NCBI GenBank assembly: GCA_002269645.1
Contig: NIVC01000051.1
Span: 558,001 to 622,000 of the forward strand
Origin: Macrostomum lignano
Lineage: Eukaryota
Length of the DNA stretch: 64,000 nt
Direction of reading: 5' to 3'
In this document: piece after piece, positions 1,110 through 64,000 of the stretch
Numbering within the stretch: position 1 is the first letter of the stretch
Layout: each line of letters starts with the position of its first letter
The notes under the pieces: generated by a model
What the model was told of the DNA's origin: nothing
Database searches by the model: none
The model's input: the letters and a program-made list of their open reading frames with translations, nothing else
Translations under genes and position numbers: made by a program

Positions 1110-1420
1110 TTTCTGCTTGGACTCAACCTCAGGGGCATCAGAGCGGTAACCATGGCCGTCTCAGGTCATGGATGCGTTGCTAAGCATCGCTACCCTCAGG
1201 TGAAATCAATTACGCCTCTCTATCTTCATCTGTGACTGGACAGGCTTTTTTAGGACAGGCTCACCTACCTCGGGCCTAACCAGAATTCCACTCCGACATT
1301 TTCAACCTAGAGCGTTCCTGTCAGTTCGTCCACTACCTAAATCCTAAATCCACCTTCTGGACTCTACGGGAAGGTGCGCTGCGGATCGACTAGAAGATCT
1401 TCCTGCGCGACACCGCAGCA
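1110..1420 (+). mobile_element. Degenerate 3' remnant of a non-LTR retrotransposon
   Basis: Broken frame MAVSGHGCVAKHRY resembles the TGHG..H motif preceding the ORF2 zinc knuckle. Downstream GCGCTGCGGA...CCTGCGCGACAC also occurs in the better preserved fragment at 12380-12850. Confidence 0.35.
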
Positions 1421-1526
1421 CTACCTTTTAACTTCCCAGTTACATTTTCAGTTATTAATAAAATAGCAAAACAATACTAGCTTAAGTGTATGTTTTACGC
1501 TGGAGGCTGTAATAAAAAAACACGAG

Positions 1527-20925: not shown

Positions 20926-23900
20926 CTAGCCAAAGAAGAACTCAAAGTGGCCGCCATTGCCCTGCTGGTGGTGCTCAAACGGATCGAAATGATGAAAGGT
21001 GAAGCCGCCGCCGCCAAACGAATTGAAGCCCTCGTGCTGCTGCTCTGGGTCCAAGGGATCTTGGCCGTTGTCAAACTTTGCTCGCTTCTCTGAACATGGC
21101 GGGTGGATGATTGGGTAGGGGAGGCAGTGAGCGGAGAGAGAGTTCGACAATGAGGAGAGCTCAACTTCTATTGACTGAACTATGAGGAATTTAGAGATTA
21201 ACTAAAAATTTGATTGAAAATATTAACAAGTGAAACTTTTGTGAATTACTCTACTGACTAAGTAGTTTAATTGTAAATATTACCGTTTCCAAGAATTTTT
21301 TTAATTTGATGGTAAACATTCCATATAATCTTTGCATTGTCAGTAATTTTACAGAAATTTTAATTTAGACAACTTTATATAAACTATACTTATTTCAGAA
21401 GTTCAAGGAATATTTAGCAGCATTTTGAATTGTTATAAACATATATGGTAAACTCACTAATTATATTTTTAACGCATTTCAGATGGTCAGTGATGATGCA
21501 AAAGTGAAACTGAGAATTATACGAGACGAATTTCAAGCCGGGATCAAGAAGTACAAAATCTACAAATTAGATAGCTTAGATGTACGTAACATAACACCTC
21601 AATGCCTAGAAGAAGCGATCCAGAATTCCAAGCAACTACTAAAAAAGCACAACATAAAAATAAATAAATTCAATTCTTATTATAGACAAACTAAATATGC
21701 AGCTGCGATATGCTTTTTTAAACCTTTTACCAAAATAGCGACGTAATATTATAGATCGATCGCACAACAAAACCTTGCATACATGAAAAAACTAAGAAAT
21801 TGTAAGTTGAAAGATATTTGGATTTAATTTATGTTGTCATTGTCACTACAATTTGAGCAAGCATAATTGGTATAGCAAGTAGGGAAATGCAAACGCAAGT
21901 CACGTCAATTAATAACATCATCTACTAAAACTTGGCAGATACAAAGTTGCATTTCTCAGTTGAGTTTCATGAAATATATGAATTTATCTTAGCTAACTGC
22001 ACTCTGCATACTGTGTTTATCATCAATTAGTTAAAGGTTGAAAAAATTGTTGAAAGAGTACGAGATTTACGATTTTACAATAACTTTATAAAAATATAAT
22101 TACGGCTAATGCGGATTGCTTTGAATAAGACAACATTGTCAATTTGAATTCAGACAACATTTTCGCTTTGGGTATAGATAAAATTGTCAATTCGAGTTAT
22201 ATAACATTGTAAATATCAGTTTGAAAACATTGTCACCTTGAGCTAAACAACATTTTAACCTTGAGCTGAAGTGACAACATTGTCACTTTGAGTTAGATAG
22301 CATTGTCACTCTGAGTTAGATAGCATTGTCACTTTGAGTTAGACAACATTGTCACTTTGAGTTAGATAGCATTGTCACTCTGAGTTAGATAGCATTGTCA
22401 CTTTGAGTTAGACAACATTGTCACTTTGAGTTAGATAGCATTGTCACTTTGAGTTAGACAACATTGTCACTTTGAGTTAGACAACATTGTCACTCTGAGT
22501 TAGACAACATTGTCACTTTGAGTTAGACAACATTGTCACTTTGAGTTAGACAACATTGTCACTCTGAGTTAGACAACATTGTCACTTTGAGTTAGACAAC
22601 ATTGTCACTTTGAGTTAGACAACATTGTCACTCTGAGTTAGACAACATTGTCACTCCGAGTTAGATAGCATTGTCACTCTGAGTTAGACAACATTGTCCA
22701 CTCCGAGTTAGATAGCATTGTCACTCTGAGTTAGACAACATTGTCCACTCCGAGTTAGACAACATTGTCCACTCCGAGTTAGATAGCATTGTCACTCTGA
22801 GTTAGACAAAACTGTCACCTTGAGTTAGTTGACATTGCCACATTAACAAATGACTCATGCAATTTTATTTTAACAAAAAATCACGACAATGAACACAATT
22901 CAAAACCATATAATAGTAGGATAAAACTGACATTTATATAACAAAAGCTACTCACCCTCATCGGTGAGCACCTCCTTGGCGTCTGAGATGTCAATAAACT
23001 TCCTCTGGGCACTTGCTTTATCGTTGCCCTTGTAGTGATCTGGGTGGTACTGAGCAGCCAGCTTCCGATATGCCTTGAGTATCTCTCGTTTCCTAGCCGA
23101 TCTGGGCACGCCAAGAATCTGATAATAATTTCGTCTGCGCGACGATTTCAACTTTTTCTGCGCATCAGCAATGCCCTCCTTGGCGCGCTGATTGTTCTTG
23201 TCAGTCTCTAGCACCTTCTGGTAGTCGGCAATGGCCTCGTTGAACATGTCCTGATGCTTGTAGGCCTCGGCGCGATTGCACAGAGCATCGGCGTTGCCGG
23301 GCTCCGCTTCCAGGACTCGAGAGCAGACGTCCACAGCTGCCGAGTCGCCATTCTTTGCGCCGCACATGCACTGGTAGGAGTCCATCTGGCGAGTTAAGCC
23401 TGCCGATTTTTGCTTGATAGTTTTTGTCAATTTTTCCAACAACTGCAGGCAGATGTCCCATTGTTTTTCTTCTGATGATTTCACTACGGCATCGAACGCT
23501 TTGGCTACCTTTTTGACCTGTTTATAGTGCTTGAAGCAGTCTTTGTGATCGGGGTCGAGTTTGAGGCATTCGCGAACTTCGTTCAGAGATTGCTCGGGAT
23601 CGCCCAGGCGATAGAACAGGTGGCTGACCCGCAGGTGACCGGCGGTGTTGTCAGTGGTTAAGCGGTTGATTGCTCGCAGATCTGAGGCCGCCTGTGTCAT
23701 TGTTATTTATCAATGTATTGTTAAAAGTGTTGTTATCCGCAACCCAATTCCGTACTTTAAAGATGCCGCAATATCCTACGTACTTTAAAGATGCTGCAAA
23801 CTCCTGTGTACTTTAAAGATGCCGCAACCCTCTTCCGTACTTTTAAAGACGCCGCAACCCTCTTCCGTACTTTAAAGACGCCGCAACCCCCTTCCGTACT

Positions 23901-25869
23901 TTAAAGACGCCGCAACCCTCTTACGTACTTTAAAGACGCTGCAACCCTCTTCCGTACTTTAAAGACGCCGCAACCCTCTTCCGTACTTTAAAGACGCCGC
24001 AACCCTCTTCCGTACTTTTAAAGACGCCGCAACCCTCTTTCGTACTTTAAAGACGCCACAACCCCCTTCCGTACTTTAAAGACGCCGCAACCATCTTCCG
24101 TACTTTAAAGACGCCGCAACCATCTTCCGTACTTTAAAGACGCCGCAACCCCCTTCCGTACTTTTAAAGACGCCGCAACCCTCTTTCGTACTTTAAAGAC
24201 GCCACAACCCCCTTCCGTACTTTAAAGACGCCGCAACCATCTTCCGTACTTTAAAGACGCCGCAACCATCTTCCGTACTTTAAAGACGCCGCAACCCCCT
24301 TCCGTACTTTTAAAGACGCCGCAACCCTCTTTCGTACTTTAAAGACGCCACAACCCCCTTCCGTACTTTAAAGACGCCGCAACCATCTTCCGTACTTGTA
24401 AAGACGCCGCAACCCTCTTCCATACTTGTAAAGACGCCGCAATACTTCTTACCTTAAAGCCTTCTCCAATAGCTTCGTAGGCATCGGCACGCAGAGCTCT
24501 CAGATCGGCGTCCATCGGACTAATCTCCAAAGCTCTAGTCAGGAAATCGATAGCATCGGTGTATTGACCATTCTCAGCCAAGTTGCGAGCATTCTCAGCG
24601 AACTCAGCTAGCGGGGTCAACTGTTCGATCTGTTTGGCAGCCTCCGCATTGCTTGGATCCAATTCTAACACGCGCCTTAGATCGGCTTTCGCGTCGCTTA
24701 GTTGGCCAGTTTTCAAATAAATGCCGCCACGCTGCAGATAGGCGGTGGCAAAGTCCGGTTTGAGCTCGATGACTTTGTCTAAGTCTGGCAGAGCTGGCTT
24801 GGACTTGCCGATAGCCATGTAGACTGTGGCTCGGCGGAAATAGCTCTGATAGTTAGTTGGGTCCAGCTCGATGGCGGCATGATAGTGAGACAAGGCGTCT
24901 GCTAGCTGGCCAGCTGCTAAAAGCTTTTTGCCCAGCTCCAGGTGTTTGTCAATTTCTGCTTGACTGCTGGCCAGAACAGAGTCTAAAATTGAAGGAGAAA
25001 ATAAGGTTAAAACAATGAAATTAGCAACTGAAAATGAATCTACTGAATTGACACTAAAATATCAAAAAAAATTTGTACTTAAAAAGCTGTTAATGAAAAT
25101 TTTAAAATCTTGTTAAAGCCTAATAGAATATAAACCTATTTTACTTATTCTATTAAATGTTATATGCTAAACAAATAGAAGGCAAACTATTGATATTATT
25201 GCTAAATTATTAAATAGTATAATAATTTAAGCAAATATTTTGCTTATAAGAATATACATTACTGGGCCCTAAATTGCATGCCTAGTATAGAATTTTATTT
25301 TAGACTACTAAACTAAATTAGCAATCAAATATTGAAAAGTTAAGCTTTACTAATTGTCATTATTTATAGAATTGTATTGGAATGATTCAACTAATAATTA
25401 GAATTTTAAATTAAAAAACAATATGTAAATCAATGTACAATAAGGGCAAGGCATTATGTATTTTTTATTTTATGTCACCATGATGTAGCAAATAAGGTTT
25501 AATAGATATTAGCTTTGGAGTTGCCTACATTTAAATAAATTTATAGCTTTGTCACTGAATGAAAAACAAACCTAAAGCACAAACAAGACAATTAAAACCA
25601 GGCAAGTGGTAGGGCAGGGGCCTTTGTTTTGGGCTTAATCGTTTGTTCTGACTAAAATGCCATATGCCTAGCAGTTATTAGTTATAGGTAACTAACTACT
25701 AAACAAAAAATATTTTAGCTTTCTATTTACTGAAGGAAAAATACTGAAAAGGACACTGAAAAAAGCAAAATTCAGCTAAGTGAATCTTAAAATTATGCTG
25801 ACCGATTAAGTAGATAACAATAACATAAAGGCAAAAAGAAGAGTTAAAAAGCTCATACCCGAAATCCAT
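20926..25869 (-). CDS. DNAJC3: DnaJ homolog subfamily C member 3 (P58IPK): signal peptide, TPR repeats and J domain
   Basis: Exons 25869-25803, 24982-24453, 23691-22956 and 21089-20926 are phase-consistent. Motifs: KHLELGKKLLAAGQLADALSHYHAA, RRATVYMAIGKSKPALPDL, NEVRECLKLDPDHK and J-domain RNYYQILGV...HPD. Confidence 0.95.
22255..22815. repeat. 23-bp minisatellite (CATTGTCACTTTGAGTTAGACAA) in DNAJC3 intron 3
   Basis: Tandem array with GACAA/GATAG variants. Confidence 0.92.
23740..24445. repeat. 29-30-bp minisatellite (GACGCCGCAACCCTCTTCCGTACTTTAAA) filling DNAJC3 intron 2
   Basis: Tandem array between the donor at 24452 and the acceptor at 23692. Confidence 0.92.
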
Positions 25870-33661: not shown

Positions 33662-36600
33662 TCAGGAGCTGCTAGGGAAGGGCACAGATCTTGGATTGCC
33701 GTAGAAGCACAGGTAGCAATCCTCTAGCAGGCGGTTGCCCTGTTCTGGAGGCGGTGTGTTGCCTGTTTTGTCTTGAAGATCGCGAAGCCACTCTTCAAGG
33801 CCATCGACGCGGGTCACCTCCGGGATGTTGTAGCCATCGTTGCAGCCTGGAAATTCAATCATTTATGAACTGGTTAGAATGGGGCTGGCATAGGGATCGG
33901 GATGGGGATGGAATGGGTGATAGGGATGAAATCGGGATGGATTAAGCAGAATGTGCGGACACGGGAATAAGCTAGTCTGAACTCACCGCCCTCCCTATCG
34001 GCCATGCTATCGAAGAACAGCCAGTGGTTGGGCTCGGCCCTCAAGAAGCAGACGTAGCTGGTGCAAATACAGACAACAGCCAGCAGATCCATGACTGTCT
34101 GACTTTTAACAATTTGTCCGGGTCTCTTATATTTCTCCAGGATATGCCTGGGATATTTAATCTTGATTGGCTCGTGCGTTTTTCCCTTTCTGTGATCCGC
34201 AAACGCCTTGTAGCACGGTTCGCAATAGGTGTAGTCTCGGCCGGAGTCGTGCTTGAGAAAGCACTGATGGCACTCGATAGTGGCAAAGTTGCCGCAGATG
34301 TTGCAGGCCCTGGCGGTGTCCGGCAGCAGGTTGGTGATGTTCAACTGCAGCACTGGCAGGATGCGGTGGAACATTTTATATGACTTCCCAGATCGAGGCA
34401 TCTGCAGAATCAGGCACTGCGGCGGCTCGCTAAACTGGATTAGCGACAGGTGCAGCAGGGTCTCAGTGTCCGCGATGTGCTCGCGTGCACCAGTGGACTG
34501 CGGCTGCTGCTGCTGCTGTGGGAACGCAAATGATGCTAATTGGCTCAATGGGGAGTTGCTGAGATGCCAATTGGCTCAATGGGGAGTTGCTGAGATGCCA
34601 ATTGGCTCAATGGGGAGTTGCTGAGATGCCAATTGGCTCAATGGGGAGTTGCTGAGATGCCAATTGGCTCAATGGGGAGTTGCTGAGATGCCAATTGGCT
34701 CAATGGGGAGTTGCTGAGATGCCAATTGGCTCAATGGGGAGTTGCTGAGATGCCATGGCTGATGCCATGGCCAAAGCTAAAAAACTCAAAGCTGCAAATA
34801 CCTGTTGTGTTTTTAGTTAATTGATGAATTCAATTCAGTTGGAGACACCTGGGTCTCGCTCAATATATTTATAGTCATGTGCACGTTGACAACAGTGTTG
34901 TCACATACATGTAGTCATGTGCACGATACCATAATTGAACGCACGATGCATATAATTAGGTAACTGAACAATTCTAGCCTCAAAGTTAGTCAGTTAGTTA
35001 ATACACCTAGGCCCGATGCAAAGTCACTACAATACCCCAGGCGAGATAGATTATAATTTCAAGGCACAGCGAGAGCTTTTTCAGTTTTACACATTTCAAT
35101 GCCAAGAAGCCAATAGTAATGACTAAAGAAGGCAGTTTAAATATTACTTCTATTGCAATATTTCAGCCTCCGCACCCAGGGGGTAATTAGATTGCAAGTC
35201 CTTAAGCCAATAGTCTCAGTATTAATTCAAAAGACACACCTGCTGTTGCTGCTTCTGCTGTTCGAAAGGCAAATCGGCCCGATCAAGAAACAGCTGCAGC
35301 ACATGGGAGCTCTGCCCAGTGCTCAGTTTGATGAACGGCTCATGACGGAGCACGTGGTCCAGCAGCAGGTTGATGAACTCCTCAGGATCTGCGGGTTGGG
35401 TTGAAACGACATGAGGATAAAGTAGAAGGCATGAGGGGGCTTTTGGGACAAAATTTTTCACGTCCTCCATAATCCCATTAAATCCATCCATATTATCCCC
35501 GACAGAATCAGAAAAAAGGGGGGTCGCACTTACTCCAAAAACTTCGAACATAATCCCATTAAATCCATCCATATTATCCCCGACAGAATCAGAAAAAAGG
35601 GGGGTCGCACTTACTCCAAAAACTTCGAACATAATCCCATTAAATCCATCCATATTATCCCTGACAGAATCAGAAAAAAAGAGGGAGTCGCACTCGCTCA
35701 CAAAACGTCCTCCATAATCCCATTAAATCCATCCATATTATCCCCGACAGAATCAGAAAAAAGGGGGGTCGCACTCGCTCACAAAACGTCCTCCATAATC
35801 CCATTAAATCCATCCATATTATCCCCGACAGAATCAGAAAAAAGGGGGGTCGCACTCGCTCACAAAACGTCCTCCATAATCCCATTAAATCCATCCATAT
35901 TATCCCCGACAGAATCAGAAAAAAGGGGGGTCGCACTCGCTCACAAAACGTCCTCCATAATCCCATTAAATCCATCCGTATTATCCCCGACAGAATCAGA
36001 AAAAAGGGGGGTCGCACTCGCTCACAAAACGTCCTCCATAATCCCATTAAATCCATCCGTATTATCCCCGACAGAATCAGAGCATAACAGGTGTCCTACT
36101 TGTTCCGAAAACTTCGAACATAATCCCATTATAATCCACTGACATCCACCCATAGCATCTTCGAAACAATCAGAAAATAATCTGAATTCTTCTCCCCACA
36201 TTCAATCCGCAACGTGCTACCACATCCCTAAAACTTTAAATCCCCTAACCCAGGGTCCTTACCCTTTGAAAAAAAATTAAATTTTCTCTAAAATGTTTCC
36301 AGTTGTCTCTCCAGGTTCTTATTACAAAGCGCACGAGCCTAATTACAAGAGTAAGTACCGATGCAAACTTGAATGCAGCGAGTACATGAGAAAATATTGG
36401 CCCGGCGTTGATATCAATGTCCCTAATATTAATCTAGCTCTCCAAAGACACTGGTTTCATAAGTATGGAGTAACCTACGTAAAAGATTACGACAGCTACT
36501 ATAACTTTGCAGAAATCATTAAGCAATTGTAGTTGCCAACTACAAGGTTGTACCTTGTAGAGTGTAGACGTAAGTTCTAAAAATAAAACCCATGCCATGC

Positions 36601-48600: not shown

Positions 48601-51600
48601 AAGCCTTTTGAAACTCTGTGGCTGCTTGGAAAAACTCATTGTAGGATTGTTGCTCCTTATTTATTAGCCCAGTAAATCGTTTCTCTGCTTGTGCTAGCTT
48701 TTCCAATTCAGATATCTGCTGTGTACTTTTTCGCTTCATTTCTTATTTTATTTTATTTTTAGTTAAAAAATTGACGACCCACTGACACCAGTTTTCTACC
48801 CACTGCCATTTTTTTGACAGCAAATCCTATGACACAATCAAAGCGACTCAGGTAAGAGTTCCCAGTCAGGAAAATCAGAATGAAACTAATCTTGGTCCTG
48901 GTCAAACACTGACATTTACATACAATGGATGTTCGTCTTTGGTTAGTGTGCACAGTCTTAAGAGCGGCTTCCATATGACATTTCAATTCAAGACAAAGGG
49001 TAGTGCGGATGCGGCTCGTGCTAACGTTGACAAGCATGATGCGGATGTGGCTCTGATCAGTAACTTTTGGGCGTACATGTTCAAGGAGTTTAGTGTATCG
49101 AATGGGAGCACAGAGTTGGAGCGAATCGCCAACTTTGGAATTGTCTATGACGCTCATTGTTTGATCGAGAATCCTGATTTTATTCAGTTGGGAAGTGGTG
49201 CGGGTTTTATTGCAGACGAAAAAGAAGGAGATATCAATGACAGTGGTTATAAAAATAGGAAGAAGAGATACAACTATGCATTGCAAGGTGCTGATGATGC
49301 TGCTAAGAACCCGCTGTATCGGTCTGTTGATGTATTTGTACCACTGAGATTCATGAGTGGATTCTGTAATACATTTAATCGACTGACCAGTAACTTTAGC
49401 TACACCTTTAGGATGACTAGAGATAATCGCAATAGAGTGTTGTGGACTGGGGCGGATCACACAAGGATGGAGGTGAAGCTAACCGGAATCGAGCTGTATT
49501 TGGAAGTCATTGAGCCAAAGACTGCACTAAAAGCAGACTATCTTAAGGCAATAGAGAAGGACATTGATGTTGCATACACGGCCTACATGTGTCGAGATGA
49601 GCGAAACGAAACTAGAACAAACATCCGCATTAAAGAGGTATCATGCAGCAATCCAAGGTATATTATTATTAACATGAGAAACCCAAATAGCATTATACGC
49701 TACATGCATGGAGACGTGCGGTCCATTCAGCATGAAATCAGTGATAATCTTTACCCTGCACTGCCACAAAATGGAGATTTCAGTCAGAACAAGATTAGCA
49801 AATTTTACAGCGAGTTGGTCGACTTGGCTGTGAAAGAGAACAATGGAATTGCTATCACTGCTCTTCAATATGGAACTCTATATCCGATGTTTGGCGCTGA
49901 TGTGTCTGCCAGACAAATGCCTACTGATAACAGCCCTGTGAATATCGTGACTAACATTGAGAGGACTGCCGCAACACCCGTGGACCTGTACATTATCTAT
50001 GCATTTGAGAGGAAGGTGAAGCTTAACATGATCAACAATTCATCCAGTAAAGTTTAAATTTTTTTTGGGTGAAAAAAATGGAAGCGATTGCTGAAAGACT
50101 AAATAATATTGTTTCTCACTCCAAGGAGAGCATTCCTATTACAATAACTGGGCGAATAAATGACTCAAACGGGATATTTGTTCAAAAATTAGAGCAGGCG
50201 ATTAGCCTGGATCCAGGTGCTAATTACCATGTCTATCTTAACGACTTCACTGGTTGGTCAAACGTTCCCAATGTGACGGCAGCAAATAATAAGTTTTATT
50301 ACAAATGGAAAGGTGCAGCAGCAGAACCTGTGGTATTCCCTGTGAGCACGCAAAGTGTGGATACCCACAATTACTTTCTAGAAAACGTCTTTACTAAAAG
50401 AGGCCATTTTGAGACACCTGATATGAGTAAGCCAGATAAAAAACTGTTCCCTGTCAAACTAGCCTATGATCTCACTGTAATGAGAGTGGTCATGCAAGTT
50501 CACAAAGATGCGGAGGTTGAGTTTAAAGATGACACTTGGTATAGGGAATTGGGATTCGAGAAGAAAGTTTATAAGGCAGAATCCGCGGCGCGGACCGCCA
50601 CTCAAGCGTCAGGGGCCGTTAGCATGGCCCGGGAAAACGTAAGCGGTTTGTTCTTAGCACCCAATATTGCAGACATTGTAAAGGGTTTGAATATTCTAAT
50701 CAAAAGTAATATCAGTCTTGATTGGGTATTTAAGGGAAAGCGAACGAATATTTTGTACAACATCTCTAACTCTGTTGCTGGAGGACAGATGCTGGTAGAG
50801 AAACCAAATCCAGTGAAAAGAGTTGTATTGAGTAATAAGGAGATTCACGAGATTGTGCTACAGTTTGAGACTGAAGATGGGGTGGGTGTTGATTTCAACG
50901 GTGAATAGTTTGTATTGACGTTAATCATTGAGAGAATGTGAGAAAAATTACAATTGCCTAATGATTTCTGCAAAGTTATAGTAGCTGTCGTAATCGTTAA
51001 TGACTACTCCATACTTATGAAACCAGTGTCTTTGGAGAGCTAAATTAATATTAGGGACATTGATATCAACGCCGGGCCAATATTTTCTCATGTGCTCGTT
51101 GCATTCTAGTTTGCATCGGTACATACTCTTGTAATTAGGCTCGTGCGCTTTGTAATAAAAACCTGGAGAGACAACTGGAAACATTTTTAGAGAAAATTTA
51201 ATTTTTTTTCAAAGGGTAAGGACCCTGGGTTAGGGGATTTAAAGTTTTAGGGATGTGGTAGCACGTTGCGGATTGAATGTGGGGAGAAGAATTCAGATTA
51301 TTTTCTGATTGTTTCGAAGATGCTATGGGTGGATGTCAGTGAATTATAATGGGATTATGTTCGAAGTTTTCGGAACAAGTAGGACACCTGTTATGCTCTG
51401 ATTCTGTCGGGGATAATACGGATGGATTTAATGGGATTATGGAGGACGTTTTGTGAGCGAGTGCGACCCCCCTTTTTTCTGATTCTGTCGGGGATAATAT
51501 GGATGGATTTAATGGGATTATGGAGGACGTGAAAAAATTTGTCCCAAAAGCCCCCTCATGCCTTCTACTGGATAAAAAGGTATGTCATGTTTTCTGGGGA

Positions 51601-54019
51601 TCTGGGAGAGTAGGGACTTAGTCTGGGGATCTGGGGGAGTAGGGACCTAGCCTAGTATTGGAAACAAGGCGTTAAATATTAAATCACCTTTTTCTTCGCC
51701 CATCATTCCTGGAATGATGTCGAGATCGTTAAGACATTTTCGCAGCTTCAGAACTTGCCTAGCGCTGACAAACTTATTTCTAAAAGCATTTGACAGTGGT
51801 AAAAATATATGAGAACACAAATTCAATATAAAATTGTAGGTCAGGGTAGGTGTCGCTCACCTTCTCAAACAGTTTACAATACCTTCGCGCAAAGTATTCT
51901 TGATTTCCTCATAATTATCGATGTCTTTAGCCTGACCAGGCCGCTCTAGGACGCCATCGAATGCGTCCACGGTGGCAAACATGGCGAATAGCGTTGAGTC
52001 CAGATAACAAGAGTTGTGATGTCCCTGGACACCGCGATTGCGACCGACCAAATTGTCCAAGTCTTCTAGGCGAATTCGAGGCTCAGTTGGACCCGCAATG
52101 GTTGCAAAGTCACCACTGCCAAATTGGTGAGGCAGAGCCTCGGCTCCTCTGGGACGATCGGCCTGGTTATTGGCATTTCGCACTGGCTCAATCAGGCTCA
52201 GAAAGGTGAACCACAGATCAGGCTGAACATCTGGATGCACGGCTCGCACTTGGCTAGAAGGCACGAACCCGTGGCCTCCGCGTTCAACTCCTTCGTTGTC
52301 ATCAAGAGCAACGCCAACAACCAGATCTGTTTGGTTTGGAATGAAACCGAACCACATAACCATGCCGACCTTGTCCAGGAATGTTAAATTGACATGCGAG
52401 TCAATTCGAATGCCTTTACTCTCCATCAGTGCCTGCGCCTCGTCGCGACGTGGATCAAACGAGTTGAGAGGCTGCGCAGGCGGCTGATAACTCTGACCAG
52501 CATTTGCGCGGCTCTCTACAAAATATGAACATTGCAGCATTTTTACAGCCTTGGCCTGTCAAGTAGAGCATTAATCCTTTAAATACTAGCAGAATTCAAT
52601 TTTATAGATTCAACTTACGAGATACTAGGTTTATTAATCTAAGTAATTCAATCCTAAGCAAAATCGAGGGCAACTCAACCAACCTGCCAATCTACGATCA
52701 AAGTCTTTCTCTCGCTGCAAATGGGCCTCTTCAACAATGAGACAACACTCGGGTTTGCCTTCAAACATATGACGATTGCCCAACCAACATGACGAATTGG
52801 GAACTCGATGGTCAAACTCCACGCCAGCCAGATGTTTTGGTCCGTTTGCATCCAGTCTACCCAGCCATTTGATCAGGCCCCGCCTGTACTCATTCTGTCT
52901 GGCGTCCAACTGCAGCACTACCCGATCGTCAATGTTAAGCAGCTGGTCAGCTGGGCAATCTTGAACCGGATCCAACCAGCGAGCGTCCGCTAGAATCAAT
53001 CGGCGATCGCGAGCTTCTTCTGGGCGCACCTTCAACAGTTGTCGAGTGTTGTCATCAGGCAACACGGATATTATCAATGGCTGGCCATCGTCTACTTTGC
53101 GATCGCAGCTGACAAAACCAAAATAGAGACCGTCTGGGTCTTTCGGTTTTGTCCAGCTAGGCAGAACACCTTTGAACCGAACTTCACACTTTAACGAGTT
53201 TGTCGCCTCTAAAAAAGCAAATTATGTGAGCCAGTTAAAAAAATCGGACTTTTCAAGGGCAACCAAAATGATTTCGAATAAAAAAGAACGCTATATTGTA
53301 GACGAGCACTCTGCTGACTCCTGAGCAGACACAAACTAGCGTACCAATCCTTAACGCAAGCACGCACTCATACACACGCTCACACAGGCTGTACAGCGGT
53401 TCTGTGACTTTTTAAATCGTCAGGCATGTACAGTCTGTGGCTTGGAGGTCGGCCATAATGGCTGTGAATCACACGACAATCCCAAGGCCAATATTTCGTG
53501 CCTCGAAATGAATGACTCAAACTCTGAGCGAAAAATTACCCGGTTTTCCTATTGCAAAGGAAACCTTAAGCACTTGAGACTCAGAGACACCAACTAACCT
53601 AGATTCTCAACAAAACTGGGATCGCGAACAGACACGATGCTACCAACTTGGAAGCGTTGGGCCAATTGAAAATTACTCGAAACACAAAAATCGTATCGCT
53701 TGTGTATTGGCACAGCTAGCAAAATCCGGGCTTCTTCAGCTGTTAAAGGTATTTTTTCGCCTTTATACATCTGGCAAAACAAGGATTCGAACTCCAATGA
53801 GCGACACAATGGTGCAAGTTGATTTGCACCTCCTCTGTCAGGTGCAATAAGCCACAATAAGCCAGAATCCATCTGATGTGTCCTTGCTTCTATCGGATCT
53901 TTGTTTCCAATTTTTACGGTGACAGACGTTTTGTACCGATTCATGAAACACTTAAAACTGCCGGGATTTTCTGTGTCGCTAGGCAGCTCAATCTGGCGCA
54001 CTTTTACCAAACTTTCCAT
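33662..54019 (-). CDS. CYLD: CYLD-like deubiquitinase, copy B (CAP-Gly domains plus USP domain); catalytic His codon deleted; Polinton in intron 4
   Basis: Exons 54019-53599, 53208-52684, 52515-51861, 51779-51688, 35388-35240, 34515-33987 and 33846-33662 join in frame. Motifs: GVQGHHNSCYLDSTLFAMF, EEKDPEEFINLLL, CICTS-YVCF, WLFFDSMADREG, GYNIPEV, DCYLCFY. The start codon is a candidate. Confidence 0.9.
34538..34760. repeat. 31-bp minisatellite (GTTGCTGAGATGCCAATTGGCTCAATGGGGA), ~7 copies, CYLD-B intron
   Basis: Units start at 34555, 34586, ... 34741. The same array is in the CYLD-A intron. Confidence 0.92.
35421..36534 (+). repeat. Left terminal inverted repeat (~1.11 kb) with 8 copies of an ~81-bp unit
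   Basis: GACAGAATCAG recurs at 35501, 35582, 35663, 35746 and on to ~36070. Reverse-complementary to 50946-51569. Confidence 0.92.
36293..36532 (+). CDS. 79-aa orphan ORF encoded inside the left TIR
   Basis: Open in both TIRs despite several substitutions and an in-frame indel; A-rich start context like the other element genes. Confidence 0.55.
   Translation: MFPVVSPGSYYKAHEPNYKSKYRCKLECSEYMRKYWPGVDINVPNINLALQRHWFHKYGVTYVKDYDSYYNFAEIIKQL
36698..36777 (+). promoter_or_regulatory. Heat-shock element array plus TATA-like box inside the Polinton
   Basis: Four perfect alternating nGAAn pentamers (aTTCt-aGAAt-aTTCt-aGAAc) at 36711-36730, a 22-bp palindrome TTCTAGAATTCGAATTCTAGAA at 36698-36719, and TATAATATATA at 36767-36777. 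Confidence 0.65.
36864..37796 (+). CDS. Two-exon orphan gene of the Polinton (~245 aa, charged/helical)
   Basis: Exon 36864-37138, donor CG|GTAAGA, 199-bp AT-rich intron, acceptor TTTTTAG at 37337. Exon 2 continues in phase and needs one 1-bp correction near 37408 to join ORF 37452-37796. Confidence 0.5.
38273..38764 (-). CDS. Parvovirus VP1u-type phospholipase A2 domain protein (adintovirus PLA2X-like)
   Basis: LPGYKYCGPLN calcium-loop motif and PVNELDSVCMWHDVKY catalytic HD motif; ORF is open. Confidence 0.85.
   Translation of the reverse strand: MQRSGGKLDSHGLIEKLPHPNKGWTLPGYKYCGPLNPLEIQLDKNNNPNPGHEPVNELDSVCMWHDVKYRDFPEEKNRWDKEMLRRLDNIGASSGFRESIARKLVKAVIFGKTKLGLGISAEGGCTGREGWCMGCSVAGFILCAPNEELGRLLKELGVERAIK
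38796..39820 (+). pseudogene. Retroviral-like (rve) integrase, split by a 1-bp frameshift at ~39181
   Basis: DDE triad in HQADLL, TDPGKEF and VERFN; YALTITDVASRY strand motif. Confidence 0.92.
39837..40293 (+). pseudogene. Small virion/core-like protein with LPLAALIPIIAGAVSAAGGVAGGV motif (adenovirus pX-like); two 1-bp frameshifts
   Basis: Adding one A to each of the A-runs at 39928-39932 and 40000-40003 gives a continuous ~150-aa frame. Missed by the ORF track. Confidence 0.55.
40418..44258 (+). pseudogene. Protein-primed family B DNA polymerase with N-terminal extension and EndoVII-like insert; several frameshifts and stops
   Basis: ExoI VVYADFEC, ExoII HNAKNYD, ExoIII YL.TDVFLLADVF, PolA YLDANNLYGWAM, PolB KLANNSVYGK, PolC YTDTDS, KMKDE, KSKG. 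Confidence 0.95.
44344..44742 (+). pseudogene. Adenain-like (C5) maturation cysteine protease with two frameshifts
   Basis: GSHW (His) and YYFDSYG (Asp); after the shift LQGLSSDICGELC (Gln/Cys). Confidence 0.88.
44709..45435 (-). pseudogene. Conserved Polinton/adintovirus hydrophobic hairpin protein (GasderminX-like family), one frameshift at ~45015
   Basis: FRLVEI...FFDYSNMIL, two hydrophobic segments, a basic patch and, after the shift, ISRAIED.FVSEDEFKTI. Family assignment is from memory. Confidence 0.55.
45513..46172 (-). pseudogene. Orphan coiled-coil-like protein with an in-frame TAG at 46005-46007
   Basis: ATG at 46172 is in frame with ORF 45513-45896 across a single stop. Confidence 0.5.
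46189..46987 (-). pseudogene. A32/FtsK-like genome-packaging ATPase, frameshift at ~46590
   Basis: Walker A VGSSGSGKT, Walker B LIVFDD, RGRH arginine motif, IAQ sensor. Confidence 0.93.
47030..47135. repeat. ~5 x 21-bp direct repeat (AGATGTGTCATTTTGGGACTT) upstream of the ATPase gene
   Basis: Direct inspection. Confidence 0.8.
47176..47595 (-). pseudogene. Small virion-like protein: GxG motifs, amphipathic helix, Pro-rich linker, C-terminal KKGSGFKFD
   Basis: ATG at 47595 and the final stop at 47176 are in the same frame; two internal stops fall in a short-repeat region with apparent compensating indels. Confidence 0.5.
47612..48739 (-). CDS. 375-aa Q/P-rich Polinton protein with a conserved-looking C-terminal helical motif
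   Basis: Open ORF. C-terminal GKGISEIYKRVAVLLGATKTG...EFVNILDKML resembles the RL.LL.AS..AG...E...IL..L motif common in Polinton proteins. Confidence 0.65.
   Translation of the reverse strand: MKRKSTQQISELEKLAQAEKRFTGLINKEQQSYNEFFQAATEFQKALGKIPEAPQIQPQPQTRPQPQQSQPQQQQLKVTDNIFGPVERVEHDGKYVFGISMWRKNIYNEPVEYYIDINKKHISVVKGSETKSIPFTETLLNFMTKNQERISDKQLKNYKDLVTFSLARDIEILKVPEVLKHMYDSGVNLTRFKKYKHFKQWFDLPDQAEVIKYLEQQQQQQQPQPQQQHFTEVLRQMKNADPTQVAKYKNDHPDAWQHLEQHSPDRMNRIKQRVFTPQQRQAPHDSSISGSEQSFASPPQQLQAQPTPQPQDQPPSTGKGISEIYKRVAVLLGATKTGMKDENRKEFVNILDKMLERKYIDKRARELLLSRFNKK
48771..50057 (+). CDS. Double jelly-roll major capsid protein; 5' end damaged (start and one T-run)
   Basis: NFWAYMFKEFSVSNGSTELE, VPLRFMSGF, LYP, YPMFGADVS, alternating beta-strand pattern, and position next to the penton gene. 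Confidence 0.82.
50078..50941 (+). CDS. Minor capsid protein (penton); premature TAG at 50906-50908
   Basis: AISLD...YHVYLNDFTGWSNVPNV...NNKFYY and IHEIVLQFETEDG..VDFNGE; the frame continues FVLTLIIERM after the stop. Confidence 0.8.
50946..51569 (-). repeat. Right terminal inverted repeat (~0.62 kb) with 2 copies of the 81-bp unit
   Basis: Reverse complement of the left TIR minus six repeat units. Confidence 0.92.
50948..51184 (-). CDS. 78-aa copy of the TIR-encoded orphan ORF
   Basis: Near-identical to 36293-36532. Confidence 0.55.
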   Translation of the reverse strand: MFPVVSPGFYYKAHEPNYKSMYRCKLECNEHMRKYWPGVDINVPNINLALQRHWFHKYGVVINDYDSYYNFAEIIRQL

Positions 54020-54079
54020 CACCAATTGCTTGTTCAAATAGAAATCTAGAAATCCCACAGATCCCCATCCCATAGAAAT

Positions 54080-57749: not shown

Positions 57750-60700
57750 TCAGGAGCTGCTAGGGAAGGGCACAGATCTTGGATTGCCGTAGAAGCACAG
57801 GTAGCAATCCTCTAGCAGGCGGTTGCCCTGTTCTGGAGGCGGTGCGTTGCCTGTCTTGCCTTGAAGATCGCGAAGCCACTCTTCAAGGCCATCGACGCGG
57901 GTCACCTCCGGGATGTTGTAGCCATCGTTGCAGCCTGGTAAATTCAATCATTTATGAACTGGTTAGAATGGGGGGTGGCATAGGGATACATATGAAACAG
58001 AGATGGAATGGGGATGGGGATGAGTAGTAGGGGTTAGCAGAACACGGCCGACACGGCGGAGATAGGAGGCGGGGTAGTGCATTGGGATAGGAGGAGGCCG
58101 CCTATCTCTCAACATAGAGACGGTTAACACTGCAGAGATAGGAGGAGAGGCGGCCTATTTCTTTGTACTTGGGATGGTTAACACTGCAGAGATAGGAGGA
58201 GAGGCGGCCTATTTCTTTGTACTTGGGACGGTTAACACTGTAGAGATAGGAGGAGAGGCGGCCAATCTCTTTGTACTTGGGACGGTTAACACTGCAGAGA
58301 TAGGAGGAGAGGCGGCCTATCTCTTTGTACTTGGGATGGTTAACACTGCAGAGATAGGAGGAGAGGCGGCCTATCTCTTTGTACTTGGGACGGTTAACAC
58401 AGCAGAGATAGGAGGAGAGGCGGCCTATCTCTTTGAACTTGGGATGGTTAACACTGCAGAGATAGGAGGAGAGGCGGCCTATCTCTTTGAACTTGGGATG
58501 GTTAACACTGCAGAGATAGGAGGAGAGGCGGCCTATCTCTTTGAACTTGGGATGGTTAACACTGCAGAGATAGGAGGAGAGGCGGCCTATCTCTTTGTAC
58601 TGGGGACGGTTAACACTGTAGAGATAGGAGGAGAGGCGGCCTATTTCTTTGTACTTGGGATGGTTAACACTGCAGAGATAGGAGGAGAGGCGGCCTATCT
58701 CTTTGTACTTGGGATGGTTAACACTGCAGAGATAGGAGGAGAGGCGGCCTATTTCTTTGTACTGGGGATGTTCAGCACTGTAGAGATAGGGGAAGCGGCT
58801 AACTTTTGCACACAAAAAACAATTTTACTACCTGGACAAATAAGAAGGGGTGGCTGCTGCAGAGTAACTGCCTGGGGCCTGGATTGGCCTGGATTTAGCT
58901 GTTTTTTCTTGCATGCACTGTACAGTGTTTACTGGCTGGTCTTTGTTGCTTTACTAAGTGTACTTACTGATAATAGATAAGTCTATTGGGTCAATTACTG
59001 GACGCCATATATTGTACCTGGAAACATTTAGCATTCATTCAACTAACCCACTCCATCTTATCTCTGCAGTGTTAACCGTCCCCAGTACAAAGAGATAGGC
59101 CGCCTCTCCTATCTCTGCAGTGTTAACCGTCCCAAGTACAAAGAGATAGGCCGTCTCTCCTCCTATCTCTACAGTATTAACCGTCCCAAGTACAAAGAGA
59201 TAGGCCGCCTCTCCGCCTATCTCTGCAGTGTTAACCATCCTAAGTACAAAGAGATAGGCCGCCTCTCCTCCTATCTCTACAGTATTAACCGTCCCAAGTA
59301 CAAAGAGATAGGCCGCCTCTCCTCCTATCTATGCAGTGTTAACCATTCCAAGTACAAAGAGATAGGCCGCCTCTCCTCCTATCTCTACAGTGTTAACCGT
59401 CCCCAGTACAAAGAGATAGGCCGCCTCTCCTCCTATCTCTGCAGTGTTAACCATCCCAAGTACAAAGAGATAGGCCGCCTCTCCTCCTATCTCTGCAGTG
59501 TTAACCATCTTTATGTTGAGAGATAGGCGGCCTCCTACTATCCCAATGCACTACCCCGCCTCATACTCGTATCTCCGCCCTGTCGCCCTGCTTACCCCTA
59601 CTACTGGGATGGAATGGGGATGGCAAGGGGATGGGAATGAAATGGGAATTGGGGATGGAATGCAAGACGATGAGAGAGAGAGGATGCTGAGGCGGGCAGC
59701 TAGTCTGAACTCACCGCCCTCCCTATCGGCCATGCTATCGAAGAACAGCCAGTGGTTGGGCTCGGCCCGCAAGAAGCAGACGTAGTGGCTGGTGCAAATA
59801 CAGACAACAGCCAGCAGATCCATGACAGTCTGACTTTCAACCACCTCTCCAGGATTCTGATATTGCTCCAGGATATGCCTAGGATATTTAATCTTGATTG
59901 GCTCGTGCGTTTTTCCCTTTCTGTGATCCGCAAACGTCTTATAGCACGGTTCGCAATAAGTGTAGTCTCGGCCGGAGTCGTGCTTGAGAAAGCACTGATG
60001 ACACTCGATGGTGGCAAAGTTGCCGCAGATGTTGCAGGCCCTGGCGGTGTCCGGCAGCAGGTTGGTGATGTTCAACTGCAGCACTGGCAGGATGCGGTGG
60101 AACATTTTATATGACTTCCCAGATCGAGGCATCTGCAGAATCAGGCACTGCGGCGGCTCGCTAAACTGGATGTTGCTCTGGATTAGCGACAGGTGCAGCA
60201 GGGTCTCAGTGTCCGCGATGTGCTCGCGTGCACCAGTGGAATGCGGCTGCTGCTGCTGCTGTGGGAACGCAAATTATACAAGCGTTGCTGTCATGTCATG
60301 GCTTAAGGATGAGTTGCTGAGATGCTAATTAGCTTTAAGAGGAGTTGCTGAGATGCTAATTGGCTTAACCACTTGTCTACGACAGAATTCCTTCCCCACA
60401 TCTCTATCTTACCAAATGGCAAGCACTGCATGCCATAGACAATTTAGATCTGCGCTGTACACTTCGAATTTCAAAACAGTTGCTTTATTATGCACAGGCA
60501 AGAAAACGCTTTCTCAACAGGAGAAGTGACATCTTTGACTGGAGAATAGTCTATGGCCAACCTAGAAAAAAAGGCAAGAGGGAGGGAATACAGGCATGAA
60601 AAGTTAACTGCAAGAATTTTTACTGGTGCCTCCTTAGCTCACCACCCCAACTTACCAAATCTACAATGCAAGCGGTCAGACAGCGACGGCAAGCAGCCAA

Positions 60701-63491
60701 GCAAGCCTTGCGAAACTTGGGCCTCGACAGCGAATCGAGCGATGAGTCGAGCGATGACTCATTTTTCACTGCCGAGAGCGAGGGAGAGGACGGTGACGAA
60801 AATCAAGAAGGCAACGATGGACCGGAGGAAGACGATCAGGGAATGATGCACGATGATTGGAGATCAGTAACTCCAGAGACTGATGCTCGAGCTAATTCCC
60901 TTCCCGAGTTCCTCGGGGCAAGCGGAGTCAATCCGGGATTCTCCGTACCTGCTGATGTTGACGACGGCTGGACAGCCATTTTCGAGCAATTTTTACCCGA
61001 TGAGTTGCTGCTTCAGATGTGCATGTGGACAAACAAGAGAGCGCAGCTGGATATTGCCAAGTTTCAAGAAGAACACGGAGACGATGAACTGCCTTACGGG
61101 CTCAGAACGTGGAAGCCCTGCACTGTTTCTGAGATGAAGAAGGTGATCGGCGTTATATTATATACCGGAGTTGTACAGAAACCGGAGGTGACGGCTTACT
61201 GGTCCACGGACCCGTTTTACTTTCATCCCTACTTTCAAAGCATGAAGATGCTTCCTCGCTCGCGGTTTCAACAAATCATGTCATGGCTGCGTTGCTATGA
61301 CTGTCTTGACTTCGACGCTGGTGATCCCTTGTGCAAGATCAGGCCGTTCCTAGACATGGTCCAGACAGTTTGCAAGAACAGCTACCTGCCCGGTCAAAGC
61401 ATTGCCGTTGATGAAGCGCTGCTGCTCTATAAAGGGAGGCTGATTTTTAAGCAGTACATGCCCAACAAGAGAGCCAAGTTTGGCATCAAATTGTACTGCC
61501 TTGCAGAGTCTTCTACAGGCTACATGTGGAACTATCTGATACATTCAACCACCATTGCGAATGAACAGTTCGGCAACGATGTGCCGCAGCTCTCAATCAG
61601 TGAGAGAGTCGTCGTAGAACTTTGTCGCGACATTCTGGACCTTGGATATCGGGTCTTTTGCGACAGTTGGTTTTCATCGGTGCGACTGGCCAAGTTCCTT
61701 CTGACCAGAGGAACAACCTTAACTGGGACCGTTCGCAAAGACCGAGGCGTTCCACCGATTCTGCGAGATATGCTCTTGCAACCACCGAGTCATTCCTTTG
61801 CCCGACATGGTGACATCCTTGCTGTGAAGCTGGTTGACAGGCGAAGCTCAGGAACAAAGACGGTCTATCTGTTGGACTCCGCTTCAACGGCTGCTAGCTC
61901 TTTGGTTAGCCGGGTACTGCGCGGTGGTGTGGAGCAGCAGCTGCTGAAGCCCAACTCGGTTTTGCAATATAATCACAACATGGGAGGTGTGGATCGGATG
62001 GATGCCGCAGCCCAGCCTTACAGCGCATGCCGCCGAACGCACAAATGGTTCGCAAAGTTGGCGGTGTTTCTGCTACAGCAGCTGGTTCGCAACTCCTGGA
62101 TTGTGTACCGACATCTAGGTGGATCCATGAGCTTTCTCAGCTACACTGAAAGGTGTGTAAAGCACTTGATTGAAAGCAGCGGAAATGGTCGATCGAGAGT
62201 TAAGCGTCAGGCTCTTCCCCGTCAGCCAGGCGACATTCATCACCGGCTGGAAAAGCTACCCGCTACCGCAGCACAAGAACGGCCTACCAAGCGTTGCCGA
62301 GTTTGTTACCAGCGCAGACTGAAAAAGCGGACCGTCTACTTCTGCCAAGGCTGTGACGGTCAGCCTGGGCTTTGCCTGGAGCCGTGCTTCTTTGAGTGGC
62401 ACTCGGCTAACTGATTGCTGGCGCTTTGCTGAAACTGTAATCGAACTGTTGCTAAAATTATTTTCATTCACTTGCATGCAGCTTCATTTGCCCTTATGTT
62501 CTCAAGATTTACCTTTGTGCATGCAATGTATGTCGTTTTCTATTTGTTTTGTGACACTCCGACGCAGTATGACAATACAAACAGTTTTTTGGCCTTGGCA
62601 TGCATAGCATTCCATTTGGTTGAGTCAGACAATGATTCTGTCTAAACTCGCTTTCCCATCGACTTCAAATCTGTCTATGGTCAATTGACAGAATGAACGA
62701 TGGCATGCACAGCATGCCACTGGTAATCATAAGGTTAAGGAGGAGTTGCTGAGATGCTATTGGCTTAAGGAGGAGTTGCTGAGATGCCATGGCTCAATGG
62801 GGAGTTGCTGAGATGCCAATTGACTCAAGGAGGAGTTGCTGAGATGCCAATTGGCTCAAGGAGGAGTTGCTGAGATGCCATGGCTCAATGGGGAGTTGCT
62901 GAGATGCCAATTGGCTCAATGGGGAGTCGCTGAGATGCCAATTGGCTCAAGGAGGAGTTGCTGAGATGCCAATTGGCTCAATGGGGAGTCGCTGAGATGC
63001 CAATTGGCTCAAGGAGGAGTTGCTGAGATGCCAATTGGCTCAATGGGGAGTTGCTGAGAAGCCAAGGCTTAAAAGTCGGGAAGCTGATACCTTAGACCGA
63101 ATAACTTATGATACCAGGGACAGCGAAGGCGTTAGCAGTTTTACTCATACATATTACAATGTCAATAATAATAATAATACAACAATAGAAGCCAGGTTTA
63201 ATATCTGTTCGATTGCTAGTTCTGTAGCAAATACTTTTTTCAATATAAACTTGAATTAAAGTAATTTAGCTGAATTATACAGATAAAAGAATAAACTCAG
63301 TCAGATTTTAATAGTCGATTTTATTTAATTCAAAAGACACACCTGCTGTTGCTGCTTCTGCTGTTCGAAAGGCAAATCGGCCCGATCAAGAAACAGCTGC
63401 AGCACATGGGAGCTCTGCCCAGTGCTCAGTTTGATGAACGGCTCGTGACGGAGCGCGTGGTCCAGCAGCAGGTTGATGAACTCCTCGGGGT
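57750..63491 (-). CDS. CYLD: CYLD-like deubiquitinase, copy A, last three exons (5' part beyond the window)
   Basis: Exons 63491-63343, 60258-59715 and 57934-57750, paralogous to copy B; retains CICTSHYVCF and FFDSMAD. Confidence 0.9.
58023..59605. mobile_element. 1,583-bp gene-less foldback element with Polinton-type termini (candidate mini-Polinton)
   Basis: Starts AGTAGTAGGGGT, ends ACCCCTACTACT. 6-bp TSD GGGATG at 58017-58022 and 59606-59611. Arms are inverted arrays of a 54-bp unit (~12 left, ~9 right) around a ~250-bp spacer. Absent from the CYLD-B intron. Confidence 0.8.
60369..62734 (+). mobile_element. piggyBac-family transposon, 2,366 bp, TTAA TSD
   Basis: TTAA at 60365-60368 and 62735-62738, CC...GG termini, splits the host 31-bp array. 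Confidence 0.9.
60666..62414 (+). CDS. Intact piggyBac transposase, 582 aa
   Basis: Acidic N-terminus; DDD triad in AVDEA, FCDSWFSS and MGGVDRMD; C-terminal Cys-rich domain CRVC...YFCQGC...LCLEPCF...H. Confidence 0.93.
   Translation: MQAVRQRRQAAKQALRNLGLDSESSDESSDDSFFTAESEGEDGDENQEGNDGPEEDDQGMMHDDWRSVTPETDARANSLPEFLGASGVNPGFSVPADVDDGWTAIFEQFLPDELLLQMCMWTNKRAQLDIAKFQEEHGDDELPYGLRTWKPCTVSEMKKVIGVILYTGVVQKPEVTAYWSTDPFYFHPYFQSMKMLPRSRFQQIMSWLRCYDCLDFDAGDPLCKIRPFLDMVQTVCKNSYLPGQSIAVDEALLLYKGRLIFKQYMPNKRAKFGIKLYCLAESSTGYMWNYLIHSTTIANEQFGNDVPQLSISERVVVELCRDILDLGYRVFCDSWFSSVRLAKFLLTRGTTLTGTVRKDRGVPPILRDMLLQPPSHSFARHGDILAVKLVDRRSSGTKTVYLLDSASTAASSLVSRVLRGGVEQQLLKPNSVLQYNHNMGGVDRMDAAAQPYSACRRTHKWFAKLAVFLLQQLVRNSWIVYRHLGGSMSFLSYTERCVKHLIESSGNGRSRVKRQALPRQPGDIHHRLEKLPATAAQERPTKRCRVCYQRRLKKRTVYFCQGCDGQPGLCLEPCFFEWHSAN
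62739..63060. repeat. 31-bp minisatellite in the CYLD-A intron (continues at 60305-60368 on the other side of the piggyBac)
   Basis: Same unit as 34538-34760, ~13 copies in total. Confidence 0.9.
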
Positions 63492-63534
63492 CTGCGGTTG
63501 GTTTGAAAATGACATGAGAATAAAAAGGTATATC

Positions 63535-64000
63535 ATGTTTTCTGGGGATCTGGGAGAGAAGGGACTTAGTCTGGGGATCTGGGAGAGTAGGGACTTAGTC
63601 TGGGGATCTGGGAGAGTAGGGACTTAGTCTAAGGAACTGGGAGAGTAGGGACTCAGCCTGGAGATCGGGAAGAGTAGGGACTTAGCCTGAAAATCTGGGA
63701 GAGTAGGGACTCAGCCTGGAGATCGGGGAGAGTAGGGACTTAGCCAGGAGATCCGGGAGAGTAGGGACTCAGCCTAGGGATCTGGGAGAGTAGGAACTCA
63801 GCCTCAATCCTGAGGAGTAGGGACCCAGACTAAGGATGAGAGAGTAGCGACCCAGCCTAGGGATCTGGGAGAGTAGGGACTTAGTCTGGGGATATGGGAG
63901 AGTAGGGACTCAGCCTAGGGATCTGAGAAGGAGTAGGGACCCAGCCTATAGAGATCTGATAAACAGTAGGAACCCAGACTAAGGATCTGGGAGAGTAGAG
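63535..64000. repeat. ~30-bp minisatellite (TCTGGGAGAGTAGGGACTTAGTCTGGGGAT variants), runs off the window
   Basis: Degenerate tandem array; only ~2 units at the paralogous position 51590-51650. Confidence 0.88.

Follow-up and report, generated by a model that had tools for sequence, protein, structure and literature searches.

Polintons, also called Mavericks, are described as elements of 13 to 25 kb with terminal inverted repeats (TIRs) of 100 to 1500 bp (Jeong et al., preprint). The closest described systems are Sf Mavericks 1 and 2 of Spodoptera, which carry an EndoVII-PolB, an rve integrase, an A32-like ATPase, an adenain-like protease, and a phospholipase A2 (PLA2) (PMC5803895) and which are placed in the Alpha panel of adintoviruses in Fig. 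S2 of Starrett et al. (PMC8502044). Vertebrate Mavericks are ~17 kb long, with TIRs, 6-bp target site duplications (TSDs), AG...CT termini, and accessory regions by the core (PMC8097293). Closer to the present host, a Maverick expansion in Dugesia and Orthopolintovirales in Rhabditophora have been reported, and 8 flatworm genomes out of 73 account for 748 integrase-linked pPolB1 loci tabulated by Jeong et al. (PMC10748475, supplementary tables 2 and 3), with 175 and 78 of these rows in two assemblies. Here we describe an element of 16,149 bp at positions 35421 to 51569 (forward strand) of a 64,000-nucleotide stretch of Macrostomum lignano DNA (assembly GCA_002269645.1, contig NIVC01000051.1, positions 558,001 to 622,000), referred to below as the window. 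It is very probably a recently integrated copy of a multicopy Polinton (Maverick; Alpha-adintovirus-like) family of this worm. We take the two assemblies with 175 and 78 rows in the flatworm catalogue to be those of M. lignano. That catalogue (PMC10748475, tables) gives coordinates rather than genes, capsid lineages, or cargo. A literature search for Polintons or Mavericks of Macrostomum found no description of the family, Repbase and some supplements lying outside that search; the portions covered of the supplements to PMC12801592 and PMC8502044 held no match. What is new here is the lineage, whereas the element class and gene set are already known, as a preliminary description made from the letters alone had stated of the class.

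We favor a recent copy because of the TSD and ends, the near-identity of the outer TIRs, the domain matches and catalytic motifs, the model of the major capsid protein (MCP), the gene sets shared with other loci, and the read depths. The element begins with AGTAGAAGG at 35421 and closes with CCTTCTACT at 51569, so that its termini read AGTAGA...TCTACT, and a perfect GGATAA duplication stands on both flanks (a 6-mer match expected by chance at ~3e-4). Its length and its TIRs (~1.1 kb on the left, 0.62 kb on the right) fall within the Polinton ranges given above, and its ends and TSD agree with the AG...CT termini and the 5- to 8-bp (usually 6-bp) duplications of the class. The outermost 32 nt of both arms match exactly, and the outer TIR is identical at 344 of 346 positions (35948-36293 versus 51185-51530); along the inner ~240 nt there are 225 matches, 13 mismatches, and 2 gaps. 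An 81-bp unit occurs in 7.7 copies in the left arm (35460-36081) and in fewer than 2 in the right, and read contigs contain joints that skip 81-bp units. GC content is 39.8% in the element and 45 to 48% in the flanks. The Polinton-type TIR and TSD anatomy of the preliminary description is thus borne out by the flanking GGATAA copies, the termini, and the outer TIR. A short orphan open reading frame (ORF) of ~80 aa in the left TIR is mirrored in the right TIR at 50948-51208 on the minus strand. It has no family match in Pfam, NCBIfam, or PHROGs, and TIR identity falls from 99% to ~94% across the part that contains it.

Table 1. Features of the element and of its host gene, in window coordinates.
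Feature	Position	Strand	Evidence
Left TSD copy, GGATAA	35415..35420		Direct sequence match
Left TIR (AGTAGA tip, 81-bp tandem unit, inner part with ~80-aa ORF)	35421..36534		Repeat and arm alignment
Orphan ~80-aa ORF in left TIR	36281..36532	+	ORF listing; no family match
Accessory slot with a pair of orphan ORFs in one frame (36864-37142 and 37401-37796)	36864..37796	+	ORF listing
Parvovirus-type PLA2, unbroken; YxGPxN and HD motifs	38273..38764	-	PF08398, E 1.2e-13
rve integrase, two frames; D, D, and E motifs	38796..39820	+	PF00665, E 2e-4; homologues in 10/24 loci
Adenovirus pX-like core protein, hydrophobic N-terminal helix	39991..40293	+	Adeno_PX PF05829, E 4.4e-4 (weak)
Protein-primed PolB with EndoVII/HNH insert and candidate TP-vOTU N-terminus; start undefined	40400..44258	+	Pfam and homologues
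C5 (adenain-like) protease, three pieces; His, Asp, and Gln/Cys motifs	44250..44742	+	PF00770, E 0.0046; homologues in 10/24 loci
Two-helix membrane protein (SLATT-like), two pieces	44841..45399	-	NF033634, E 0.015 (weak)
Two orphan ORFs	45513..46175	-	ORF listing
A32-like packaging ATPase, two pieces; Walker A and B	46189..46987	-	PF04665, E 0.003; homologues in 11-13/24 loci
Small basic ORF, two GxG-hydrophobic motifs; candidate core or membrane-lytic protein	47341..47718	-	Statistically unsupported
375-aa Q-rich ORF, unbroken	47612..48739	-	ORF listing; PZ-like by eye only
Double jelly-roll MCP, 407 aa open, broken near 5' end	48770..50057	+	Pfam DJR-like, E 8e-6, and fold model
Probable minor capsid protein (penton), 276 aa, unbroken	50078..50908	+	Profile from 13/24 loci, E 2e-18
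Right TIR, closes with TCTACT	50946..51569		Arm alignment
Right TSD copy, GGATAA	51570..51575		Direct sequence match
Host CYLD-like gene, copy A	33665..54034	-	Protein matches and mapping of M. lignano protein
Paralogous copy B, matching exon and intron, empty site GAATAA at ~63519-63524	63325..63601	-	Flank alignment

Between the TIRs lie genes for replication, integration, and virion formation (Table 1). Thirty ORFs were scanned against Pfam, where only PLA2 and Endonuclease_7 exceeded the curated cut-offs; homologues were counted in 24 IMG/VR loci whose PolB is of the same type, and catalytic motifs were searched by pattern in the separate gene pieces, in which all motifs sought occur. The integrase match falls under its curated cut-off. 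The polymerase is spread over seven collinear pieces between 41.0 and 44.2 kb that hold the Exo I to III and Pol A to C motifs, with Pfam matches to Endonuclease_7 (E 2.2e-5) and DNA_pol_B_2 (PF03175). Its homologues number 1201, the best of them at most 40% identical, and named insect PolBs share 34 to 36% identity over the piece tested. An N-terminal piece has a Cys that is invariant and a His that is nearly invariant among 40 relatives; by its position and by comparison with PMC11071308 this domain is a candidate vOTU with a Cys-His dyad. A metagenome scan for the polymerase recovered 16 distant loci (37 to 67% identity over the best segment), none with homologues of the accessory genes, and locus scans of IMG/VR with the MCP, a PolB piece, a cargo ORF, and the penton-like ORF returned no close relative. 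Profiles of the MCP, PolB, and penton gave nothing informative in sequence searches of the PDB.

The protease and ATPase combine weak Pfam matches with homologues at E 4e-14 and 4e-21, respectively. For the MCP, a model built from 109 sequences (pLDDT 91.8), which superseded a poor one from 8 sequences (pLDDT 41.5), resembles the capsid proteins of Sputnik (E 1e-20, TM 0.66), iridovirus, and PBCV-1. The nearest sequence relatives of the MCP are 13 unnamed sequences at 68 to 77% identity in ENA, JGI, and Logan contigs, followed by two at 42 to 44% and nearly all others below 35%; two short fragments at 82 to 98% identity probably derive from the same host. Against BFVD folds the best 50 rows are at most 12% identical, and no named adintovirus hexon is close. 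By these comparisons the capsid lineage is divergent and unnamed. Polintons also have a single jelly-roll minor capsid protein; the 276-aa ORF that follows the MCP has no match in Pfam or PDB, and its homology, position, and size make it a probable penton. The inventory of replication, integration, and morphogenesis genes listed in the preliminary description was therefore recovered through Pfam, homologues, and the MCP model, the penton through homology and position. The labels PZ-like, given by eye to the 375-aa ORF (blank in the Atlas), and pVI-like are statistically unsupported (E 2.5 or worse).

Several membrane-entry genes had also been claimed. PLA2, which is also weakly similar to VP1 of adeno-associated virus, is solid, whereas the pX-like and SLATT-like matches are weak and an amphipathic-helix test of the small ORF at 47341 gave p 0.20, leaving that candidate unsupported. 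The Adeno_PX match is on a separate ORF at 39991 and not on the PLA2 ORF (by Pfam; the original PLA2X calls used HHpred). The ORF at 46005-46175 (minus strand) weakly resembles the N-terminal half of IMG/VR pX-type genes (E 0.2), and a pX-type gene is possibly split between this ORF and the one at 39991. A profile built from three IMG/VR loci matches the pieces of the membrane gene at E 4e-9 and 3e-5. Among the 24 IMG/VR loci, PLA2 is present in 4, the membrane gene in 2 to 3, and the penton-like gene in 13. Four small accessory ORFs together contain the GxG-hydrophobic motif five times, where 1.1 would be expected (p 0.006), and the 2867 aa of the remaining ORFs do not contain it, a hint, from a motif picked post hoc, that these may be protease sites. 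Beta adintoviruses are marked by GasderminX and cupiennin-like genes; no match to the gasdermin Pfam family was found among the 30 ORFs.

Most of the cargo, which the preliminary description had thought possibly undescribed, is standard for the class, and orphans are confined to the left accessory slot and a few small ORFs. The spacer between the two accessory-slot ORFs is AT-rich and begins with a splice-donor-like GTAAGA, and the two ORFs may be joined by splicing. Neither has a homologue in Pfam, NCBIfam, PHROGs, or 40 fetched loci, and the second has none in IMG/VR or phages. An Atlas cluster labeled helix-turn-helix (HTH) takes in this second ORF at 0.92 (146 features in common, the family present on 15% of the members), which offers a weak lead toward an HTH-like protein. 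A likeness of a cargo ORF to the left-end gene of IMG/VR contig L017, noted by eye, was not borne out statistically (BLASTP, E 0.29).

The presence of pPolB, rve integrase, adenain-like protease, A32 ATPase, and a double jelly-roll MCP, together with the TSD and termini, upholds the earlier assignment to the Polintons and adintoviruses. Alpha adintoviruses are recognized by a PLA2 in the virion module (PMC8502044), for which the element has the PF08398 match; further marks of the group are a pX-like C-terminal domain on the PLA2 (PLA2X), a PolB of PF03175 type with strong bidnavirus matches, and a hexon and penton that group with those of Mayetiola. The Spodoptera elements are described as having an EndoVII-PolB and a PLA2, as here (PMC5803895), and stand in the Alpha panel (PMC8502044), and Alpha membership of our element is likely; the Spodoptera hosts belong to a different phylum, and in the window element the pX-like ORF is separate from PLA2. 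Vertebrate Mavericks end in (AGT)2 or (AG)3, in contrast to AGTAGA here, and differ in gene order; the main text of PMC8097293 does not mention the phospholipase that is present in our element. Three IMG/VR contigs of 15.6 to 17.6 kb (L017, L018, and L025) share the PolB class, protease, PLA2, ATPase, penton-like and pX-like genes, and a PF21738-type MCP with the element; L017 and L025 also share the membrane gene, and L017 is likewise bounded by TIRs, of ~650 nt. However, their gene order and strands differ from those of the element, their MCPs are only remotely similar (E 9e-16 at best), most of their genes are unbroken, and they have no homologue of the accessory ORFs of the window. L017 (1-15967) itself looks like an entire Polinton between TIRs, its core genes unbroken and its left end holding a 211-aa orphan. 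We also considered an adintovirus with a Beta polymerase and an Alpha capsid. Six full-length PolB relatives have no PF03175 match at E 0.01, which fits the "divergent" wording used for Beta polymerases by Starrett et al. (PMC8502044). Yet the Spodoptera Mavericks combine EndoVII-PolB and PLA2 with strong bidnavirus similarity (PMC5803895) and stand in the Alpha panel (PMC8502044, Fig. S2), and EndoVII-PolB with PLA2 recurs in 4 of the 24 IMG/VR loci. Given the Spodoptera make-up and panel placement the Beta or hybrid reading was dropped as very unlikely.

Twenty of 24 listed sequencing runs, from seven studies of one organism, contain the stretch, the best of them with 0.61 of the sampled words. 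In run X7, single core contigs reach depths of ~700 to 3000 against 15 to 18 for the flank, while the 36.8- to 38.3-kb cargo lies mostly at 15 to 18 (28 for one stretch), these being depths of assembled contigs, which are not copy numbers; runs X1 and X3 repeat the pattern. We read this only as many copies of the core and one or two of the cargo. A joint found in three runs leads from the end of PLA2 directly into TIR-adjacent sequence, which implies that other copies fill the left slot differently. In run X13, three contigs (median 255 nt) link the family terminus at 35421 to other flanking DNA, marking further insertion sites. X13 looks like mRNA, with a loose end that fits an exon-exon junction of the host gene, and spans all 30 bins; it was not used as evidence of expression, because contig depth cannot rank genes and the coverage of the core could stem from DNA carried over from many copies. 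Alternatively, the family might be an exogenous virus that infects the worm at present, with this copy as a fresh provirus. The full morphogenesis set with its motifs intact, the young TIRs, the variable accessory slot, and the 13 contig MCPs would all suit such a virus. However, three DNA-like runs, each from a different study, agree in the magnitude of their core-to-flank depth, as integrated copies would lead one to expect, IMG/VR holds no close relative, and the MCP relatives could be endogenous copies of other small animals; we regard infection as an unlikely explanation.

Several observations weigh against a recently integrated copy. As assembled, six genes are broken by at least 12 frame changes: six in PolB, two in the protease, and one each in the integrase, the membrane gene, the ATPase, and the 5' end of the MCP. 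About 20 of the 40 substitution rows listed (of 468) are core sites where most or all of the contig depth disagrees with the window, for the most part by transitions, so that they reflect real divergence of this copy. The neighboring piggyBac ORF (582 aa) is unbroken, the PF03175 match is weak (E 3e-4) and confined to one PolB piece, and the read evidence consists of assembled contigs. Moreover, no contig spanning a junction appears among the 32 listed of ~28,000 pieces. This last result, together with joints in three runs that skip the element at 1.4 to 1.9 times flank depth, is what might be expected if a repeat consensus had been pasted into the gene during assembly. Such a chimera is exceedingly improbable, since the 6-bp duplication is perfect at both exact termini, the flanks are continuous with the intron of a paralogue, in X3 and X7 the cargo contigs have the depth of the flank and 0 differences, and paralogues of the host gene (a cluster of four) account for the empty joints.

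The frame breaks raise the question of sequencing error versus decay, which the reads cannot decide because contigs drop rare variants. Seven PolB relatives align across all six frame changes over 41.0 to 44.2 kb with one in-segment stop, at a frame boundary; PLA2, the penton-like ORF, and the 375-aa ORF are unbroken. Of the 12 indel rows listed (of 62), 10 have bases that the window lacks; gaps against read contigs number 0 to 1 in single-locus pieces, with 3 in one piece. We lean modestly toward long-read consensus errors in an unpolished repeat because the TIRs are near-identical, nonsense codons are almost absent, the indels are biased toward missing bases, and single-locus gaps are few. 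In a truly dead copy, the breaks would be real and would have arisen by decay after insertion or by integration in trans of an already defective genome. The frame changes, the private, transition-rich substitutions, the 0.61 of words in the best DNA run, and the defectiveness of 96% of vertebrate Maverick copies (PMC8097293) speak for this scenario, and the TIR identity, the near-lack of in-frame stops among the indels, and the missing-base bias speak against it; we find it quite possible, if somewhat less than even. An intact Maverick has all core ORFs unbroken, and this copy as assembled does not, so that its completeness is structural only; the full gene set of the preliminary description does not hold in the coding sense.

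The host flanks carry exons of a minus-strand CAP-Gly/USP (CYLD-like) gene, whose protein has its best matches in M. lignano (93% and 98%; two of four matches, a cluster of four). Mapping of an M. lignano protein places two tandem copies in the window, copy A (54034-33665) and copy B (from beyond 64000 to ~57750). The element lies in the copy A intron between exons 51689-51779 and 35240-35388, 32 nt ahead of the 3' splice site, and lengthens this intron from ~145 nt to 16.3 kb. An empty site had been claimed within the window and does exist, but in the tandem paralogue rather than in an allele: the corresponding intron of copy B is uninterrupted, its GAATAA differs from GGATAA by one mismatch, and its flanks share 191 of ~200 bases on one side and 72 of 78 on the other with those of copy A. 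In three of four read runs, a joint skips exactly the element, with seven letters that fit either side; this overlap suits GGATAA rather than copy B, and the joint may come from an allele without the element or from a further paralogue. At the TSHYV box (near 34057), the histidine codon retained in copy B, which we take to encode the catalytic histidine of CYLD, is missing from copy A, as is a four-residue stretch that copy B keeps, and the copy A deubiquitinase may therefore be catalytically dead. Because the insertion lies in the paralogue without this histidine, it was probably tolerated by the host.

If the recent-copy reading is right, the rve integrase would have inserted a linear, TIR-ended genome via a 6-bp staggered cut, extending the ~145-nt intron to 16.3 kb while sparing its last ~30 nt and the AG. 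By analogy with PMC11071308 and PMC8502044, TP-vOTU-pPolB would replicate such genomes from their AGTAGA ends through protein priming, and ATPase, MCP, and penton would package them in jelly-roll capsids matured by the protease. PLA2, the pX-like protein, and the membrane proteins would serve core condensation and entry.

Elsewhere in the window, a piggyBac transposase at 60666-62414 (plus strand; 582 aa, DDE_Tnp_1_7 at E 4e-69, and a Cys-rich C-terminus) is located in an intron of copy B and absent from copy A. Exons of a TPR and DnaJ protein (DNAJC3-like) lie at 22948-25061 (minus strand), with a 29-bp minisatellite in an intron, and exons at 13012-15240 (minus strand) encode a GxxxxGKS P-loop and a helical region that is dynamin-like by eye; the piece at 13015-13914 had no Pfam match. 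Numerous intronic minisatellites with periods of 15 to 54 occur over 15287-63998, their copy number varying widely between paralogous introns, and a 54-bp array is present in both orientations at 58122-59506. Short dispersed inverted repeats (5000-6542 versus 8032-9104; 73 to 82% over 110 to 150 nt) are perhaps small nonautonomous elements.

The locus offers a dated-looking insertion with a paralogous preinsertion control, a divergent capsid lineage, and a host that is tractable in the laboratory. Should the breaks prove to be assembly errors, ORF-based surveys would undercount intact Polintons in long-read assemblies. A bolder proposal, to which we give little credence at present, is that an unnamed polintovirus lineage is still active in M. 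lignano as a young family of tens to >100 copies that exchanges genes in the left slot and whose close capsid relatives circulate in environmental samples. If it were true, the left slot of this copy would possibly hold a spliced HTH-like gene transcribed within a host intron, and cultured, transgenic M. lignano would provide a direct test of animal Polinton virions and of new insertions.

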